DNA of 64,000 nucleotides from Dehalococcoidia bacterium (GTDB lineage: Bacteria; Chloroflexota; Dehalococcoidia; SZUA-161; SpSt-899), in contig JAQTRE010000003.1 of the NCBI GenBank assembly GCA_028711995.1, positions 543-64,542 of the forward strand, in the 5' to 3' direction. A program made the translations under genes and the position numbers. Shown piece by piece: positions 10,364 to 17,684 of the stretch (position 1 is its first letter; each line of letters begins with the position of its first letter). The notes under the pieces were generated by a model. It did no database searches. It saw nothing but the letters and a program-made list of their open reading frames with translations, and was not told the origin of the DNA.

Positions 10364-12634
10364 CTACAGGAAGAGCGGAGCGAGCACCAGCGTAACCGTC
10401 GAGAGAAGTTTGACCAGAACGTGCAATGACGGACCGGCCGTGTCTTTGAACGGATCACCCACGGTATCGCCCACAACTGCCGCGCCGTGCGTCGGGTTCT
10501 TCATCTTCTTGCCCGAAGCGTCGGTGAGGTACTTGCCGCCCAGAGCGCCGGTCTCGATGTATTTCTTCGAGTTGTCCCAGGCTCCACCCGCATTGTTGAG
10601 GAAGAGCGCGGTAATAATACCGACGATGGTTCCTACCATAATTAGAGCGCCCACAGCCTCAGCAGCGATCAACGGGTGAGCATCATCCACATATATCTGC
10701 TTGAAGATAACGCCCACACCAACCGGTACACAAACGGCGAGAAGCCCAGGAACGATCATCTTGCGCAGGGCCGCCTTGGTAACGATATCCACGCATGTGC
10801 CATAGTCGGGTTTGAAGTCTTTGGGGAACTGAATCATGTCGTTCACCCTGGGCAGCGTGGCATATTGCCGGCGCACTTCAGCAATGATAGCCTGTGCTGC
10901 CTGACCCACTGCTCGAATAGCAAAGGCAGAAAACAGGTAAACCAGCGCCGCGCCAACGAGCGCGCCGATGAATACCTGTGGCTTAGCCAGGTCAATTGGG
11001 AACGGGGAATCAATCGGTAGACCAGCATAATTCCTGACCTCATCCATGTATGCCTGGAAGAGCAGGAACGCCGCCAGACCGGCCGAGCCGATGGCGTATC
11101 CCTTGGTGAGCGCCTTGGTGGTGTTGCCCACCGCATCCAGCCTGTCGGTCTTCGCGCGAATCTCTTCAGGCTGCTGGGACATCTCTACAATGCCGCCTGC
11201 GTTATCGGTGATGGGCCCGAAGGTATCCATCGCCAGGATATAAGCCGCGGTAGAGAGCATGCCCATGGTGGCCACTGCCGTTCCGAACAGTCCGGCATGA
11301 GGAAGACCGCAGGTGTTTCCCAATTGATAGGATCCCAGCAGGGCTGCCGCCATGAAACAGACGGGTAAGGCCACGCACTCAAAACCCACCCCGATACCGG
11401 CGATGATATTGGTTGCCGGACCGGTGACTGAGGCCTCGGCTATGCTCTTGACAGGCCGATACTTGTATTCCGTGTAATACTGGGTAACGTACACAAAAGC
11501 CACCGAGGTAACTACGCCGATGACTCCGCAAAGGTAGAAATGCCACCAGGCATCAGTAGCCTGAGTCACCCCCGTAATAGGGTCAACAAACTTGGCATCC
11601 AGCAGCCAGTAGGAGGCCGCACCGAACCCCACCATCGCCAGCGCAACGGCGACGTAATATCCTCTGTTCAGGACTTGCATCGGATCCATCTTCTCTTCCT
11701 TATCCATATGGACATACATGATGCCGATGACGGAAGCGATGATTCCGAAGGCACGGGCAATCAGCGGGAACATCAGAACGCCGATGATCCCTTCGCGGAA
11801 CTCAAAACCCTGTTGAATCGCGATTTGAGCCAAGCTTGCAGCCAGGATCATGGCACCGATGTTTTCCGCGGCAGTCGATTCAAACAGGTCGGCGCCACGG
11901 CCAGCGCAGTCGCCCACGTTATCGCCCACCAGATCGGCGATAACCGCCGGATTCCTGGGGTCATCCTCCGGAATACCGGCTTCCACCTTGCCGACGAGGT
12001 CAGCGCCTACATCAGCGGCTTTGGTATAGATACCGCCGCCCAGCTGGGCAAACAAAGCCACGAACGACGCGCCAAAGCCGTAGCCAATGATCAGAAGCGG
12101 TATCTGAGTCTCCTTAACATCGGTCACCAGACTTACCAGTCCAAAAAGGCCGGCCACTCCCAAGAGGCTCATGCAGGTGACGAGCAACCCCGAAACCGCA
12201 CCACCTCGGAGGGCGACGCGAAGCGCATCATTGAGGCTGGTAAGGGCCGCATTGGCAGCCCGTATATTGCTTCGGATGGAAATCCACATCCCTACATAAC
12301 CCGCAATGACCGAGCAGATCGCGCCGAAAACAAACGACACGGTGATCCACATCGCCATTTCCCAGCCTTCATTAACAGGGTCAAAGTCCTTAGAACCACG
12401 CACAAATGCGTAATAGCAGAACAACAAAACCGCCAGCACAACCGCCATCATGGCAATTGTCTTGTTCTGGCGGCGGAGGAAGGCTTCCGCACCTTCCTTG
12501 ATGGCATTGGAGATTTTTAGCATCTCCTCGCTTCCGGTGTCGTGCTTGAGAACCCATTTTGCCAGGTACACGGCACACAACAGTCCGAAGACGCTGATGC
12601 CCAGAACCATGGCTATAAAATGTTCAGTCTCCAT
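10364..12634 (-). CDS. hppA: Membrane-bound proton/sodium-translocating pyrophosphatase (H+-PPase/V-PPase)
   Basis: About 750-aa polytopic membrane protein. Diagnostic motifs GGIYTKAADVGADLVGKVE and DLVGDNVGDCAGRGADLFES, and a C-terminal DNAGG-like region. Confidence 0.9.
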   Translation of the reverse strand: METEHFIAMVLGISVFGLLCAVYLAKWVLKHDTGSEEMLKISNAIKEGAEAFLRRQNKTIAMMAVVLAVLLFCYYAFVRGSKDFDPVNEGWEMAMWITVSFVFGAICSVIAGYVGMWISIRSNIRAANAALTSLNDALRVALRGGAVSGLLVTCMSLLGVAGLFGLVSLVTDVKETQIPLLIIGYGFGASFVALFAQLGGGIYTKAADVGADLVGKVEAGIPEDDPRNPAVIADLVGDNVGDCAGRGADLFESTAAENIGAMILAASLAQIAIQQGFEFREGIIGVLMFPLIARAFGIIASVIGIMYVHMDKEEKMDPMQVLNRGYYVAVALAMVGFGAASYWLLDAKFVDPITGVTQATDAWWHFYLCGVIGVVTSVAFVYVTQYYTEYKYRPVKSIAEASVTGPATNIIAGIGVGFECVALPVCFMAAALLGSYQLGNTCGLPHAGLFGTAVATMGMLSTAAYILAMDTFGPITDNAGGIVEMSQQPEEIRAKTDRLDAVGNTTKALTKGYAIGSAGLAAFLLFQAYMDEVRNYAGLPIDSPFPIDLAKPQVFIGALVGAALVYLFSAFAIRAVGQAAQAIIAEVRRQYATLPRVNDMIQFPKDFKPDYGTCVDIVTKAALRKMIVPGLLAVCVPVGVGVIFKQIYVDDAHPLIAAEAVGALIMVGTIVGIITALFLNNAGGAWDNSKKYIETGALGGKYLTDASGKKMKNPTHGAAVVGDTVGDPFKDTAGPSLHVLVKLLSTVTLVLAPLFL

Positions 12635-12791
12635 TTACACCTCCTCTTTTATTCGCGTCCGTGAGAATTGAACTGCCGTTTTTTCATCGGTGATGCTCTT
12701 CTTGCATTCTTGGATCCGGCACCTCCCTTTCTGCCAACTCATAGAGGCGGCTCGATCCCCCTTTTATCGACTAACTGTCCTTTTCATAAAA

Positions 12792-12819
12792 ATAGGGGCA
12801 ATGTTACCATTGCCCCTAT
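12792..12819. other. Perfect 12-bp-stem palindrome in the hppA upstream region
   Basis: ataggggcaatgttaccattgcccctat. On the minus strand it is followed by ttttatg, so it is terminator-like and would insulate the hppA promoter from transcription entering from the 12.8-14.2 kb gap. Confidence 0.35.
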
Positions 12820-13082
12820 CGGAAGTCGATGGAGGGACATACCAACTCCGTGTTCATTAGATTTGATCTGAAGACCTTACCGCCCTCTTGACGCATGACC
12901 GAACCAAGTATAGCGAAGATCATGATGTTCTGCAATAGGTTATGAAAACCCCTAATCAGTGGATTCAGATGGATTTCCCCCATCACAAACTGGGGAATTC
13001 TCCCAGCAAAGTTTATTGCCAGCCCGAAGCCTGACAGCTATTGTGGTTAATTACCTTCATCTATTAGGGCGCACAACTGTTA

Positions 13083-13335
13083 TGAACACGAATACGAAAA
13101 CAAAAGAGGCCGAGCGCAACTATTAATCTTCAGCCTAGCCAATGAATCCTTCGGAGTCGATATCGGCACGGTCAATGAAATCATCCGAATGCAGGATATC
13201 ACCCGGGTGCCCAGAGCGCCGAATTTTGTCCAAGGGTCATCAATCTCAGAGACAAGGTCATCCCGGTGGTGGACCTGAGCAGAGTCTTCAGTCAAGACCA
13301 GGCCAAAGACCTCGTAGATGCTGAGCTGACCTTGA
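13083..13335 (+). pseudogene. Decayed partial duplicate of cheW (5' end fused to 3' end, in-frame stop and frameshift, degraded RBS)
   Basis: 13083-13260 is near-identical to cheW 16430-16610 (atgaacacgaataccaaaacaaaagaagccgagcgc...ggcacggtcaatgaaatcatccg.atgcaggatatc.cccg.gtgcccagagcgcc.aattttgtccaagg) but carries TAA (caactattaatc versus caactggtgatc) and a 1-nt deletion. After about 13268 it joins sequence homologous to the cheW 3' end (ctgagca..gt.tt.agc..aga.caggccaaag.cctcg). The upstream attagggaggagg RBS of the intact copy is degraded to attagggcgcaca. Confidence 0.7.
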
Positions 13336-14284
13336 TGAAATCGATCTTCCGACAGGGGGTTGGAATACCTCTGTCGGAAGGCTTTATCCCCTGAATCCTC
13401 TTTTGAATCAAGCCTCCGATTGCAATATGTTCAAATATCCCCATGGGATGCACATGATGCAGCCATACTGAACAATTTCCCTATCGCAAACTGGGGGATA
13501 CCCTCAGTAAATTTTGTTGCTGGCCCTGTTTTAGAGGACTGCCCCGTCTGGTAAATTAGCTCAGAGGCGACTTTCGAGGACTGACTTAGGGAGTCCCTCC
13601 TTACAATTTCATAGAGAGCCTGGCCGTTATTCTGTTTCACTATTGAGCGGCTGGGAATATCCGAGAAAGGCAAATCAGGAGAAATCCTGAGACGCAAAGC
13701 CACGGGCCTGACGTCCAACCAGGACAAGGCAGCCGGGTTGCCGAAGATCCTCAATCGTGGTGGGGTTTGCACAACTTCTGTCAGGGTGCAAATTCGCACA
13801 GATGCGATCACTAGAGAATGCGCCGAGGCGGTGGGATGCAGGGAAAAGGCCGAAAGGAATTGGCGAAACGATGAGGACGGGACAACTTGGACTATCATAA
13901 GCAGGCATACGGATATCCTGGAAGCGTAAAACCCTCATATGAAAGGATTGGTTCGGATTGGCTTCTCCACCGCAACCGACCAGAGCCAACGAGCCAGAAG
14001 GGAAACAGGCCAATACCCTCAAGGCCTCTATCTGGACGGATACTGACGCCCGTTCGCAGCACAACCCGCAATTCACCTGCGCTGATGATAAACATCCCGG
14101 TCATACCTGAATTGACGGTTGTGAGACCTTGATTTTCCTCAAAGCTCGATCACTGTCTCTTCAAACACAAATTCAAAAAATAAAAAAGGGGGAGAGAAGG
14201 ATAAATCGAAAACTGAGAAGACAAAGCCAACAAATGAGTATTCCCCGGCAACAAAACTATCTTGTGTAAAGGAGGACAAACGGA

Positions 14285-16316
14285 AGTGAAAAAGTTAACA
14301 ACCATGCGAATGAGCATAAGGGCTAAACTCCTGGGCGGGTTCATGCTAGTGGTCATCCTATTGCTGGCCGTGTTCGGCATCGCCTATACCGGACTCAGCG
14401 ACATGGGAGATAAGAAAGACGAGGTCGTCAAGCAAAGCGAGATTGAAAGCCATCTGCAAAATATGGAGTACCACGCAGTTACGAGGTACTACATGGTCAA
14501 AGATTGGGTCGCTAGCATAGGCGGCCCCCAAGAAGAGACATATTTCCAGAAAGCGGAGGCAATCAAACAAAACTACTATACCGAAGCTGATACGTTACGA
14601 GGCTTATTGCCTGTCGATCAGGTTGCCGTGCTTGAAGATATCGTCAAATACGGCGAGGCGATCATCACCATTACGGGCAATACTGAGGGCCAAATGGACT
14701 TGGCTGCCATGATGGAAAGCAACAAAGCCTCCCAAGCTGCCAAGGCGGCCCTAAAAGGGAGTGCGACCGAGGCGATGCTGGCAGCCCAGAAGAGCGCCGA
14801 TGATGCCAAAACGTCGGCCATCATCATGACCTCGATCATGGCAGGCATCGCCGTAGCGCTGGCTCTTGTTATCGGATTTCTCATCTCGCGCTCCATCGCC
14901 AACAACACCAAGAAGGTGGTTCAGGCTGCCGACCAAATTGCCGATACCGACCTGGCAGCTCTGGCCAGCGCCACTGCGGCCATGTCAGAGGGTGACCTGA
15001 CCCGGTCGGTCGCCGTGCAAACCCAGCCCATAGCCGTAAAATCCAATGACGAACTGGGCGATCTGGCCAATTCCTTCAACCGAATGATCGCCCGTCTCCA
15101 TGAAACCGGCCAGTCCTTCTCCCTGATGACCACCAAGATGAGCGGCCTCATCGGCAAGGTGGCCGAAAACTCGGTGCAACTGAGCTCGGCCAGCGACCAA
15201 CTGGCTTCATCGGCTGAACAAGCTGGTTCCGCCACCCAGCAGGTGGCCAGCACTACCCAGCAGATGGCCAAGGGTGCGGGGGATCAGGCCGTCAGCACTC
15301 AGGAAACCGCCAAAGCCGTTGACCAGCTCACCGAAGTCATCTCACAAATCGCCAAGGGGGCTCAGGATCAGGCCAGCGGTGTCGAGAAAGCCACTTCCGC
15401 TATCGGTGAAGTCTCCACATCCGCTCAGCAAATGGCCAAGAACGCTCTCGGCGCCGCCGATAGCGCCAAGAAGGCCGCCCAGACCGCCAAGACCGGCACC
15501 GAGGTCACCAGGAAGACCGTCGAAGGCATCGAGCGCGTCAGGGATAGCTCACTGGCCGTCTTCCAGAAGATCTCCGAGATGAACAAGAACTCCGAGCAGA
15601 TCGGCAGAATCGTGGCGGTGATTGACGACATCGCCGCCCAGACCAACCTCCTGGCTCTCAATGCCGCCATCGAGGCGGCCCGGGCAGGCGAACACGGCAG
15701 AGGATTTGCGGTAGTTGCCGACGAGGTCAGAAAGCTTGCCGAGCGTTCCTCCACTGCCACCAAGGAGATCGCCGCTCTCATCACCGGCATCCAGAGCAAC
15801 ATCGGAGAGTCCGCCAAAGCCATGGAACAGGGGCAGCATGAAGTAGACGAAGGATGCAAGCTCGCTACCCAGTCCGGCAAGGCCCTGGAAGAGATCCTCA
15901 GAGAGGCCACCGAAGCCGCCAATCAGATCGAGCAGATATCCAGAGGAGCTCAGCAAGTGAGCAACTCCACCAATGATCTGGTCAGTATCATCGATAGCGT
16001 CGGGGCAGTGACGGAACAGAGCATGGCCGCCACCGAACAGATGACCGCTAACGCTCAACAAGTGGCCAATGCCATCGAGAACGTCGCTGGTATCGCCGAA
16101 GAGAACAGCGCGGCCACCCAGGAGACATCGGCTTCCGCCGAAGAGATGAGTTCCCAGGTCGAGGAGATCGTCGCCGCCTCCCTTTCTCTCAAGCAAATGG
16201 CCGAGGAACTTCAGACCACCGTATCCGTGTTCAAGACCAATGGCCACGGCGCTCACAAAGATTTGGCCGGAAGCGAGACGCTGTCGGTTAACGAGAAGGT
16301 GTTAGTCCGAAATTAA
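14285..16316 (+). CDS. Methyl-accepting chemotaxis protein (2 TM helices, periplasmic sensor domain, HAMP, MCP signalling domain)
   Basis: TM1 [20 protein letters not shown], periplasmic region of about 150 aa, TM2 [26 protein letters not shown] (..[18 protein letters not shown]). Highly conserved MCP hairpin ..[42 protein letters not shown]. Perfect AAGGAGG RBS 10 nt before GTG 14285. Alternative starts are ATG 14262 or ATG 14304. Confidence 0.85.
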
Positions 16317-16429
16317 GGCAAAGTTTGGGGGAAGGGGAATCAAGATTCCCCTTCCCCGCATTCACAAGCCCCGATACTGACAAATATCGCTTGATACCCA
16401 TCATCAATTAGGGAGGAGGACGACTGTTT

Positions 16430-16954
16430 ATGAACACGAATACCAAAACAAAAGAAGCCGAGCGCCAACTGGTGATCTTCAGCCTGGCCAATGAATCCTA
16501 CGGAGTCGATATCGGCACGGTCAATGAAATCATCCGCATGCAGGATATCTCCCGAGTGCCCAGAGCGCCCAATTTTGTCCAAGGGGTCATCAATCTCAGA
16601 GGCAAGGTCATCCCCGTGGTGGATCTGCGCAAGGTTTTCTGCCTTCCTGCCGGGGAGACCTCCAAGGAGACCCGAATCGTGGTGGTAGACATTCTGGAGC
16701 AACAGGTCGGCATTATGGTTGATGCCGTAACAGAAGTGCTGCGCATCTCTGCCGATTCTGTGGAGCCTCCGGCATCGATGATCACCACCGGCGATGCCGA
16801 TTATCTCCTCGGAATCGCCAAGCTCGATCACAAGCTCATCACCCTGCTCGACCTGAGCAAGGTGTTTAGCCGAGATCAGGCCAAAGGCCTCGAGGAAGTT
16901 GACCTCACCCAAACCGAGAAAACCGCCCATAAAATGACCCTAGCTAGAGCTTAA
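16430..16954 (+). CDS. cheW: Chemotaxis coupling protein CheW
   Basis: QLVIFSLANESYGVDIGTVNEIIRMQDISRVPRAPNFVQGVINLRGKVIPVVDLRKVF is a canonical CheW domain. GGAGGAGG RBS. No cheA, cheY, cheB or cheR in the window. Confidence 0.9.
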   Translation: MNTNTKTKEAERQLVIFSLANESYGVDIGTVNEIIRMQDISRVPRAPNFVQGVINLRGKVIPVVDLRKVFCLPAGETSKETRIVVVDILEQQVGIMVDAVTEVLRISADSVEPPASMITTGDADYLLGIAKLDHKLITLLDLSKVFSRDQAKGLEEVDLTQTEKTAHKMTLARA

Positions 16955-16965
16955 AGATAGTTTAT

Positions 16966-17008
16966 GGAGGAAGGAGATCGCAAAGCGATCTCCTTCCTCC
17001 AGCTTTTA
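16966..17008. terminator. Bidirectional rho-independent terminator between cheW and the translin-like gene
   Basis: ggaggaaggagatcgcaaagcgatctccttcctcc followed by agcttttatc. 16-bp perfect stem. Confidence 0.65.
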
Positions 17009-17033: not shown

Positions 17034-17684
17034 CTATCCTGGTGACGAGATGCTCTTATTGAAATTGTCCAGCTTGATTTCCAGTTCCCTCTGCCTCAGC
17101 GCCACGGTCAGATCGCCCCGGCTTCTCTCCAGAACCCCCCTTACCATGTCGGTGGTCCTTCGAAGTCCACCGGTCATCGCATCCGGAAAATCCATGGTCA
17201 CCAGCATACTGAAGATGTCATCCATCATCCCCAGTATATCCTCGCAGCGATCCAGCTCGCCGTGCCTCATCACATCCAGGATATGACGTCTGAGTTCTCC
17301 CGCCGCCTCACCCAGACCATTCAGATAAGAGGAATACTCCACACCCAGGTCATCGGGATCAGGGATATTCCCTCCCGAAACCAGTGCCAGCGTGATGCAA
17401 GCCTCAGCGTATTCCTTGTGAGAATCATGAACGAATCCAGTGTATCGCAGCTCGTCCTGATCCTTGATGGCCTGGCCCACATCATCGATGATCTCCTTGG
17501 CAGCCTGGGCTAACGACTTGGCCAGTTCGTATTCGCCACGATGGGCCGCCCTGATCGAAGTGGAGCACTTATAGATTGCCTCTCGCGAAAGCTTAATCGC
17601 CTTATCTCGCGCCTCATGCTTGGCGGCAAACGATCCCCTGATCCTGTCTCCGATCTTCTCCAAAGCTGGACTAATCCTGCTCAT
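17034..17684 (-). CDS. Translin-family protein (COG2178-like, predicted nucleic-acid binding), tentative
   Basis: All-alpha protein of about 215 aa. It contains the Translin/TRAX signature region VEYSSYLNGLGEAAGELRRHILDVMRHGELD (compare TRAX YLLGVADLTGELMR...GDxD). Overlaps the thiE 3' end by 14 nt, so it is probably in the same operon. Confidence 0.5.
   Translation of the reverse strand: MSRISPALEKIGDRIRGSFAAKHEARDKAIKLSREAIYKCSTSIRAAHRGEYELAKSLAQAAKEIIDDVGQAIKDQDELRYTGFVHDSHKEYAEACITLALVSGGNIPDPDDLGVEYSSYLNGLGEAAGELRRHILDVMRHGELDRCEDILGMMDDIFSMLVTMDFPDAMTGGLRRTTDMVRGVLERSRGDLTVALRQRELEIKLDNFNKSISSPG

Follow-up and report, generated by a model that had tools for sequence, protein, structure and literature searches.

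The 64-kb stretch of DNA analysed here (contig JAQTRE010000003.1; hereafter the window) belongs to a Dehalococcoidia metagenome-assembled genome (MAG) and contains a gap at 12635-14285, which direct reading and the open reading frame (ORF) listing place between the membrane pyrophosphatase gene hppA (10364-12634, minus strand) and the GTG start codon, at 14286, of a methyl-accepting chemotaxis protein (MCP) gene. In this gap we identified a previously unannotated cyclic di-GMP type I (c-di-GMP-I, or GEMM-I) riboswitch aptamer (13660-13746, plus strand), predicted to be of the canonical type and situated upstream of a chemoreceptor operon composed of the MCP gene (14286-16316, plus strand) and cheW (16430-16954, plus strand). 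We consider it likely that the gap as a whole is composite, being made up of the promoter and leader of hppA, a dead cheW cassette, and the c-di-GMP-I aptamer with a leader upstream of MCP-cheW. The presence, coordinates and family of each of these elements were established in this analysis, as was the lack of coding potential across the gap. MCP-cheW is an isolated pair among genes of the core genome, which in the window comprise clpC, hppA, thiE, rnhB, proB/proA, rnc, ftsY, dnaE, a ribosomal protein cluster, secY, rpoA, fusA and clpB. No cheA, cheY or GGDEF/EAL genes occur within the 64 kb.

A first-pass annotation had described the gap as gene-free, and codon usage agrees. A log-odds score, for which 17-19 long window genes served as the training set, never rose above 0.12 in any of the six frames of the gap, compared with sliding best-frame values of 0.23-0.45 within hppA and the MCP gene, and we therefore regard 12635-14285 as genuinely non-coding. 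When every ORF of the gap was scored along with sliding windows, none had gene-like codon usage. CheW was the sole protein match in the gap in a tblastn search with all 258 ORFs of the window and a six-frame Pfam search, and blastn of the gap against the window returned two cheW matches and one internal 51-nt repeat, with nothing further. For the approximately 900 nt to the right of the cheW similarity, the first-pass annotation had offered two suggestions, a remnant of an MCP or cheA gene and a non-coding RNA. Six-frame Pfam, tblastn and codon statistics found no MCP, cheA or other protein remnant in 13340-14284, and the first suggestion is not supported. The second was well founded, since an Rfam scan placed the c-di-GMP-I aptamer in this segment.

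The aptamer matches the Rfam covariance model RF03167 with a score of 71.7 bits (gathering score 59; E = 2.4e-16) over all model positions (1-80 of 80), and a second member of clan CL00126 likewise scores above its own gathering threshold at the same place. It is the only Rfam family in the window, in which the scan found no second or degenerate aptamer. The first hairpin has the GNRA-capped architecture of type 1 aptamers, with a GAAA tetraloop at 13681-13684 closed by a 6-bp stem (UCAGGA/UCCUGA), and the conserved core GGCAAA...GAAA...GACGCAAAGCC...CCGGG.UGCCGA is present. Read from the Rfam alignment, the equivalents of the ligand pocket are G13669, A13696 and C13741, which is the canonical G/A/C combination. 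We take these bases to correspond to G20, A47 and C92 of the Vc2 aptamer, on the basis of the consensus alignment and the Vc2 sequence. As a control, metagenome contigs were scanned for aptamers sharing the P2 signature, with either A or G allowed at the A47 equivalent; all 121 of 121 aptamers carried A. In the c-di-GMP-I aptamer, G20, A47 and C92 are the bases that contact the ligand (PMC11218506). From these features, we assign the element at 13660-13746 to the canonical c-di-GMP type, with c-di-GMP as its predicted ligand. More than 60 metagenomic aptamers match it by blastn, with the similarity confined to 13655-13748. Tandem c-di-GMP-I aptamers are a known arrangement, and pairs lying approximately 150-230 nt apart were seen among the metagenomic loci (L084, at 1680-1767 and 1907-1994; also L051 and L123).

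The aptamer is followed by a 539-nt leader (13747-14285, plus strand), which is non-coding, includes a C-rich part and carries a Shine-Dalgarno sequence, AAGGAGG, at 14269-14275, with the GTG start codon of the MCP gene ten bases further on. The MCP, presumed to be the product of the regulated gene, contains HAMP (PF00672) and MCPsignal (PF00015) domains; its 676-residue sequence is 100% identical to that of an NCBI Dehalococcoidia MAG protein. Because the aptamer and the MCP gene lie on the same strand, with no gene between them and no terminator-like site found within 13747-14285 by a pattern scan, MCP-cheW is the obvious target, and we infer that the aptamer is co-transcribed with the pair. 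Binding of c-di-GMP would stabilise P1 and could thereby affect the MCP-cheW mRNA at the level of read-through, stability or translation, so that the supply of chemoreceptor would be coupled to the second messenger that governs the motile and sessile states.

Several observations weigh against this view of the aptamer. The distance from the aptamer to the Shine-Dalgarno sequence is 523 nt, and among 81 metagenomic loci with the same P2 signature, where the distance to the next ORF has a median of 55 nt and a 95th percentile of 410 nt, only three have 500 nt or more, compared with 539 nt here. No expression platform, whether a terminator/antiterminator or a Shine-Dalgarno-sequestering helix, was identified near the 3′ end of the aptamer. 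The leader shows no excess of structure (fold z = +0.88), 120 metagenomic riboswitch loci offered no homology to it beyond the aptamer, and the scan did not call a promoter from which the riboswitch would be transcribed. Among MCP relatives, upstream regions were compared at 44-48% identity and contain no riboswitch; the sole close relative, P0002, is 82% identical and comes from a second Dehalococcoidia MAG. The analysis as a whole was made on the sequence of a MAG contig. Since no platform is identifiable, we file the element as an aptamer of its class, treat its function as a complete riboswitch as putative, and base the proposed regulation of MCP-cheW on position. The lack of an adjacent terminator or sequestering helix is also the reason why we favour control of transcription elongation or of processing within the long C-rich leader, for instance in a Rho-dependent manner; as the most likely mode of action of the aptamer, this is a guess.

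These same features raise the possibility that the aptamer could be orphaned. A former adjacent target gene would then have decayed to leave the leader as its remnant, and MCP-cheW would be transcribed from a promoter of its own nearer to 14286. The riboswitch, like the cheW copy described below, would be a relic, or its role would be limited to terminating or shaping a short non-coding transcript. In its distance to the next ORF, the aptamer ranks in the top ~4% of comparable aptamers, and the leader is without conserved structure or homologues in a locus that demonstrably gathers relics. Three successive overlapping plus-strand ORFs also tile 13738-14269 in different frames, but no protein remnant was detected there by six-frame Pfam, tblastn or codon statistics. 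The core of the aptamer, moreover, is intact and scores 12.7 bits over its gathering threshold, and no promoter-like site was called between 13747 and 14285 from which MCP-cheW might be separately expressed. We consider an orphaned aptamer unlikely, although it deserves to be kept in mind, and we retain MCP-cheW as the probable target.

Two further candidates within the leader were examined and rejected. A small riboswitch-controlled ORF at 13738-13929 (63 amino acids, with a TTG start inside P1) returned only multi-stretch matches to repetitive, low-complexity proteins in an exhaustive phmmer search, which also speaks against a decayed target gene. A large structured RNA or ribozyme was set aside on the fold z-score given above and on the Rfam scan, which returned no family besides the aptamer in 13330-14300, even at E<=10. 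The 3′ side of the aptamer (GUUGCCG, 13737-13743) is complementary to 14246-14252, and part of a direct repeat described below (13512-13523) is complementary to 14245-14256; the target, CCGGCAACAAAA, is found 13 nt before the Shine-Dalgarno sequence of the MCP gene. These complementarities of 7-11 nt are compatible with chance and are the only hint of long-range pairing.

An MCP gene is the first ORF downstream of the aptamer in three of the approximately 81 metagenomic loci (L061, L065 and L086). The MCP relative with 48% identity (L005) keeps the MCP-CheW pairing and has an upstream spacer of 145 nt with no riboswitch. A search of genome contigs with the MCP found only Firmicute MCPs of 31% identity, and a metagenome search with its N-terminus gave no match. 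Between the MCP stop codon (16316) and cheW (16430) lies a very strong hairpin without a U-tract (16329-16358, GGGGGAAGGGGAATCAAGATTCCCCTTCCCC), which may be an mRNA-stabilising or processing element. The similarity between cheW and its decayed copy starts just downstream of this hairpin, at 16398. Directly beyond the cheW terminator, a 216-residue ORF on the minus strand (17034-17684) has a gene-like codon score of 0.31 and matches no Pfam family.

The left third of the gap belongs to hppA, which is transcribed away from the aptamer on the minus strand and whose product is 100% identical to an NCBI protein of a Dehalococcoidia MAG. Its promoter (12907-12938, minus strand), of the sigma-70 type, was read directly from the sequence as TTGCAG and TATACT hexamers separated by 17 nt. 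In seven relative contigs, in which the remaining upstream DNA is unrelated, a stretch approximately 250 nt upstream of hppA shares 94% identity with this 32-nt block. Between the promoter block and the hppA start lies a 5′ leader (12635-12906, minus strand), which measures approximately 265 nt between the ATG at 12634 and the inferred start of transcription. No coding signal was found in the leader, and no Rfam family in it or in the leaders of relatives with 91%-identical hppA. The last ~19 nt ahead of the ATG are conserved in these relatives (L009-L015), as is a hairpin within the leader (12785-12819, minus strand), which has a perfect 13-bp stem at 12792-12819 followed by UUUUAU. Its stem (ATAGGGGCAA/TTGCCCCTAT) and T-run, unlike the loop, do not vary among five aligned sequences, and its predicted free energy of -22.3 kcal/mol (z = -5.6) was equalled by none of 200 shuffles. 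The hppA homologues at 77-78% identity have spacers of 125-160 nt, without the long leader and hairpin.

With its G+C-rich stem and U-tract, this hairpin has the form of an intrinsic (Rho-independent) terminator, and the pattern scan had not listed it. The first-pass annotation had placed a terminator-like palindrome at 12792-12819, correctly, and had taken it to flank the region containing the decayed cheW. That role does not fit a minus-strand element inside the hppA leader: since the palindrome follows the hppA promoter and has been conserved in relatives without chemotaxis genes at this position, it is not a boundary of the relic. Because of its location within the leader and downstream of the promoter, we propose 12785-12819 as a candidate attenuator and not as a gene-end terminator.

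In the window and its relatives, a conserved 10-13-bp hairpin with a U-tract lies 35-76 nt downstream of the promoter block (window 12785-12938; L009 9748-9900; L010 9749-9900), and the window carries a 41-nt insertion between the two relative to the other sequences. A short ORF terminates at or just ahead of the hairpin, with 26 codons in the window and five in relatives. We could also consider that the promoter-hairpin module may be an undescribed attenuator that controls the membrane pyrophosphatase, and that the aptamer acts over ~540 nt of unstructured leader through a platform atypical of its class in Dehalococcoidia, for instance a Rho- or RNase-dependent one. This reading is unlikely, and we continue with the composite gap of ordinary elements.

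Beyond the hppA promoter, there is no synteny with the relatives that have 91%-identical hppA. Upstream of hppA they carry unrelated genes (a purC fragment or cobU) and no chemotaxis genes, and the riboswitch-MCP-cheW block (14286-16954) is absent beside hppA in L009-L015. An identical hppA protein is found in at least two genomic neighbourhoods (L009 and L010). From the absence of the block and the two neighbourhoods of an identical hppA, it follows that the DNA upstream of the hppA promoter is prone to rearrangement in this lineage.

Between the hppA promoter and the aptamer lies a cheW pseudogene (13054-13335, plus strand; ATG at 13082, 3′ tail to 13331), for which the intact cheW, bounded by a bidirectional terminator at 16967-17001, served as the comparison template. 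The first-pass annotation had recognised an inactivated copy with an internal deletion, and the similarity is indeed long and significant: blastn aligned 13054-13289 with 16398-16639 (88% including gaps, E = 4.9e-81) and 13252-13331 with 16830-16909 (75%, E = 2e-9), and tblastn with CheW gave E = 2e-27. Some of its details require adjustment. It had started the relic at 13083, one base to the right of the ATG, and had given about 95% identity over the first 180 nt; sub-blocks do reach 93-95%, and the whole coding 5′ block (13082-13289) stands at 91%, with 18 substitutions in ~208 nt. It had also listed a TAA together with a single frameshift. The frame is in fact broken twice, by 1-nt deletions that follow 13116 and 13233, and the premature TAA (13124-13126), which ends translation after 14 codons, is present because the first of them shifts the frame and not through a nonsense substitution. 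The change in the ribosome-binding site was described correctly: the Shine-Dalgarno sequence of the relic (13064-13076) has gone from GGGAGGAGG to GGGCGCACA, which includes a 3-nt deletion.

At the junction of the relic (~13266-13272), 228 nt (76 codons) have been lost in frame between the similar motifs VVDLxKVF and LLDLSKVF, and the N-terminal half of cheW is directly joined to the C-terminal half. Pfam detects CheW fragments in two frames, covering profile positions 1-40 (32.1 bits) and 32-65 (21.2 bits), and no uninterrupted ORF spans the ~138-residue CheW domain (PF01584). The fragments in two frames, the stop after 14 codons and the loss of 76 codons identify the relic as a pseudogene. 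Just upstream lies a candidate sigma-70-like promoter (13016-13044, plus strand; TTGCCA-17-TATTGT), which is a consensus match (9 of 12 positions) and the sole promoter-like site called by the scan in 12500-14400. Downstream is a strong hairpin (13346-13388, plus strand), a candidate terminator of the former paralog. The first-pass annotation had noticed it and had set it at 13337-13370; its arms lie at 13346-13358 and 13368-13380 and are followed by GGCTTTAT. Its predicted free energy is -26.9 kcal/mol (z = -3.1 for 13346-13380), its tail (GGCUUUAUCCCC) has only three consecutive U residues, and the terminator scan made no call. The tail GCTTTATC is similar to the tail AGCTTTTATC behind the intact cheW terminator at 16967-17001.

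The decayed copy itself bears out a past duplication of chemotaxis DNA, as the first-pass annotation had proposed. It also proposed decay after that duplication; the copy is plainly decayed, and the pattern of change is not that of a recent duplicate that began to decay at once. Third codon positions hold 12 of the 18 substitutions (binomial P = 0.004), and the tail beyond the junction, 77% identical to the intact cheW, still translates into a CheW-like C-terminus. This third-position bias, the more diverged 3′ tail, and the promoter-like site and hairpin of its own lead us to conclude that the relic was probably an old, separately transcribed cheW paralog that had long been functional before it died, and not a fresh duplicate. 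The cassette would once have been independent, with a promoter-like site, a Shine-Dalgarno sequence, a coding sequence and a terminator-like hairpin. It would have been killed by loss of the Shine-Dalgarno sequence, the two 1-nt deletions and the in-frame deletion, the last of which could have arisen when the CheW fold's two homologous halves recombined. The uneven divergence could alternatively be due to gene conversion in the 5′ part.

The fragment might instead have been copied recently from the resident cheW and never have been functional, or it might be a chimera of strain variants in the MAG assembly. The high identity (93-95% in sub-blocks) over the first ~155 nt, which takes in DNA just upstream of the ATG, speaks for such readings, and MAG contigs can be chimeric; a chimera, however, would not be expected to show two frameshifts together with a clean deletion that joins domain to domain in frame and a flanking repeat that has diverged. 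A recent copy would in turn have to account for the excess of third-position substitutions, for a tail that has diverged to 77% and remains CheW-like when translated, and for a hairpin unlike the resident terminator alongside a promoter-like site of its own. Both versions are improbable in the light of these features, and an old paralog remains our preferred explanation of the relic.

A 53-nt direct repeat brackets the relic. Copy 1 (12973-13025, plus strand) lies just ahead of it and consists of an imperfect palindrome (ACTGGGGAATTCTCCCAG), an A/T-rich tail and TTGCCAGCCC; copy 2 (13475-13526, plus strand) lies approximately 135 nt ahead of the aptamer and has a terminator-like hairpin (13490-13508) followed by AAATTTTGTT. 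The imperfect palindrome of the repeat measures 19 bp, and the repeat may serve as an operator, a promoter element or a hairpin. The copies are 76% identical, with a local alignment score of 44 against a shuffle mean of 16 and none of 500 shuffles reaching 44. Neither the 64-kb window nor any fetched locus contains a third copy, and a triple tandem periodicity of ~500 nt, with a weak third copy at 14003, was unsupported.

An old tandem duplication could account for the repeat and the relic: a unit of repeat, riboswitch, MCP gene, cheW and terminator would have been doubled, and the riboswitch and MCP gene would then have been lost from the upstream copy. Extension of the repeat to the left (42 of 500 shuffles) or to the right is not significant, which counts against this scenario. 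Tandem duplication is the best explanation we have for the repeat and relic together, and we infer it with caution because the repeat is short and its flanks do not align significantly.

Assignment of the aptamer to a ligand class has to contend with the name of its best-scoring model, since RF03167 is the c-di-GMP-I-GGC family. We take 'GGC' to denote the bases at positions 20, 47 and 92, a naming scheme to which the consensus gives indirect support. The model consensus GACGCGAAg aligns with GACGCAAAG in the aptamer, where 13696 is A and the GGC variant has G. When A-bearing metagenomic aptamers were submitted to the same models, ten of 17 were labelled RF03167 (L104, L055, L126, L092, L039, L025, L125, L086, L074 and L049) and seven of 17 RF01051, and because so many canonical-looking aptamers receive it, the 'GGC' label is best read as an effect of competition between related models. 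A true GGC variant, which would bind another ligand or c-di-GMP with altered affinity, has the top Rfam model on its side and is very improbable given the A at 13696, the ten A-bearing aptamers that share the label and the canonical G20 and C92 equivalents. The c-AMP-GMP (GEMM-Ib) riboswitches carry A in place of G at the G20 equivalent. Here, both candidate positions (13669 and 13670, in AAAGGCAAA) are G. The key pocket change of the c-AMP-GMP class has been described previously (PMC9481103).

Our findings add an unannotated c-di-GMP riboswitch, predicted from sequence, to a Dehalococcoidia MAG and, if the regulation of MCP-cheW holds, would tie the expression of a chemoreceptor to the second messenger c-di-GMP in a lineage known chiefly through metagenomes. 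A seemingly empty 1.6 kb can be wholly explained by ordinary elements of known kinds, and the long leader without a recognisable platform is the only unusual feature, a modest puzzle that does not amount to a new kind of system. For annotation practice, competition within the Rfam clan may mislabel canonical c-di-GMP-I aptamers as "GGC", and the diagnostic base should be read before a new ligand is inferred.

Each part of the gap can be set beside known systems. The relic resembles ordinary bacterial pseudogenes formed by duplication and decay in its frameshifts, its lost ribosome-binding site and its deletion between internal repeats; there is no fundamental difference, and what is notable is that the deletion produced an in-frame fusion of two CheW-fold halves that are structurally homologous. 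In Clostridioides difficile, a c-di-GMP-II aptamer is combined with a group I ribozyme, and the gene follows only after a long RNA (PMC9481103). At our locus, too, the RNA between the aptamer and the presumed regulated ORF is several hundred nucleotides long, whereas the aptamer here is of class I, the Rfam scan found no group I intron, and the leader has no more structure than its shuffled counterparts. The c-di-GMP-I-GGC family (RF03167) shares with the aptamer the top score and a strong overall similarity, and differs at the naming base, which is A here and G in the consensus. Generic c-di-GMP-I riboswitches (RF01051), for which Vc2 of Vibrio cholerae is the structural reference, are alike in the full-length covariance match and the conserved core; they differ in the much shorter distance to the ORF, and no platform is identifiable in our case.

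The closest parallel is the c-di-GMP-I riboswitch Bc1, which in the Bacillus cereus group precedes mcpE (PMC11218506). Both aptamers are of class I, carry a GAAA tetraloop and a pocket of the G20/A47/C92 type, and are positioned upstream of a methyl-accepting chemotaxis protein gene (in the 5′ untranslated region in Bc1), and in both the stretch from aptamer to start codon is long for the class. Bc1 has ~220 nt between the aptamer and the AUG and two clear intrinsic terminators, in contrast to 539 nt and no terminator-like site here, and its host is a Firmicute, whereas the present locus is an isolated MCP-cheW pair in a core-gene block of a Dehalococcoidia MAG. In Bc1-mcpE, the arrangement proposed here, in which a c-di-GMP riboswitch precedes the gene for a chemoreceptor, has a precedent.

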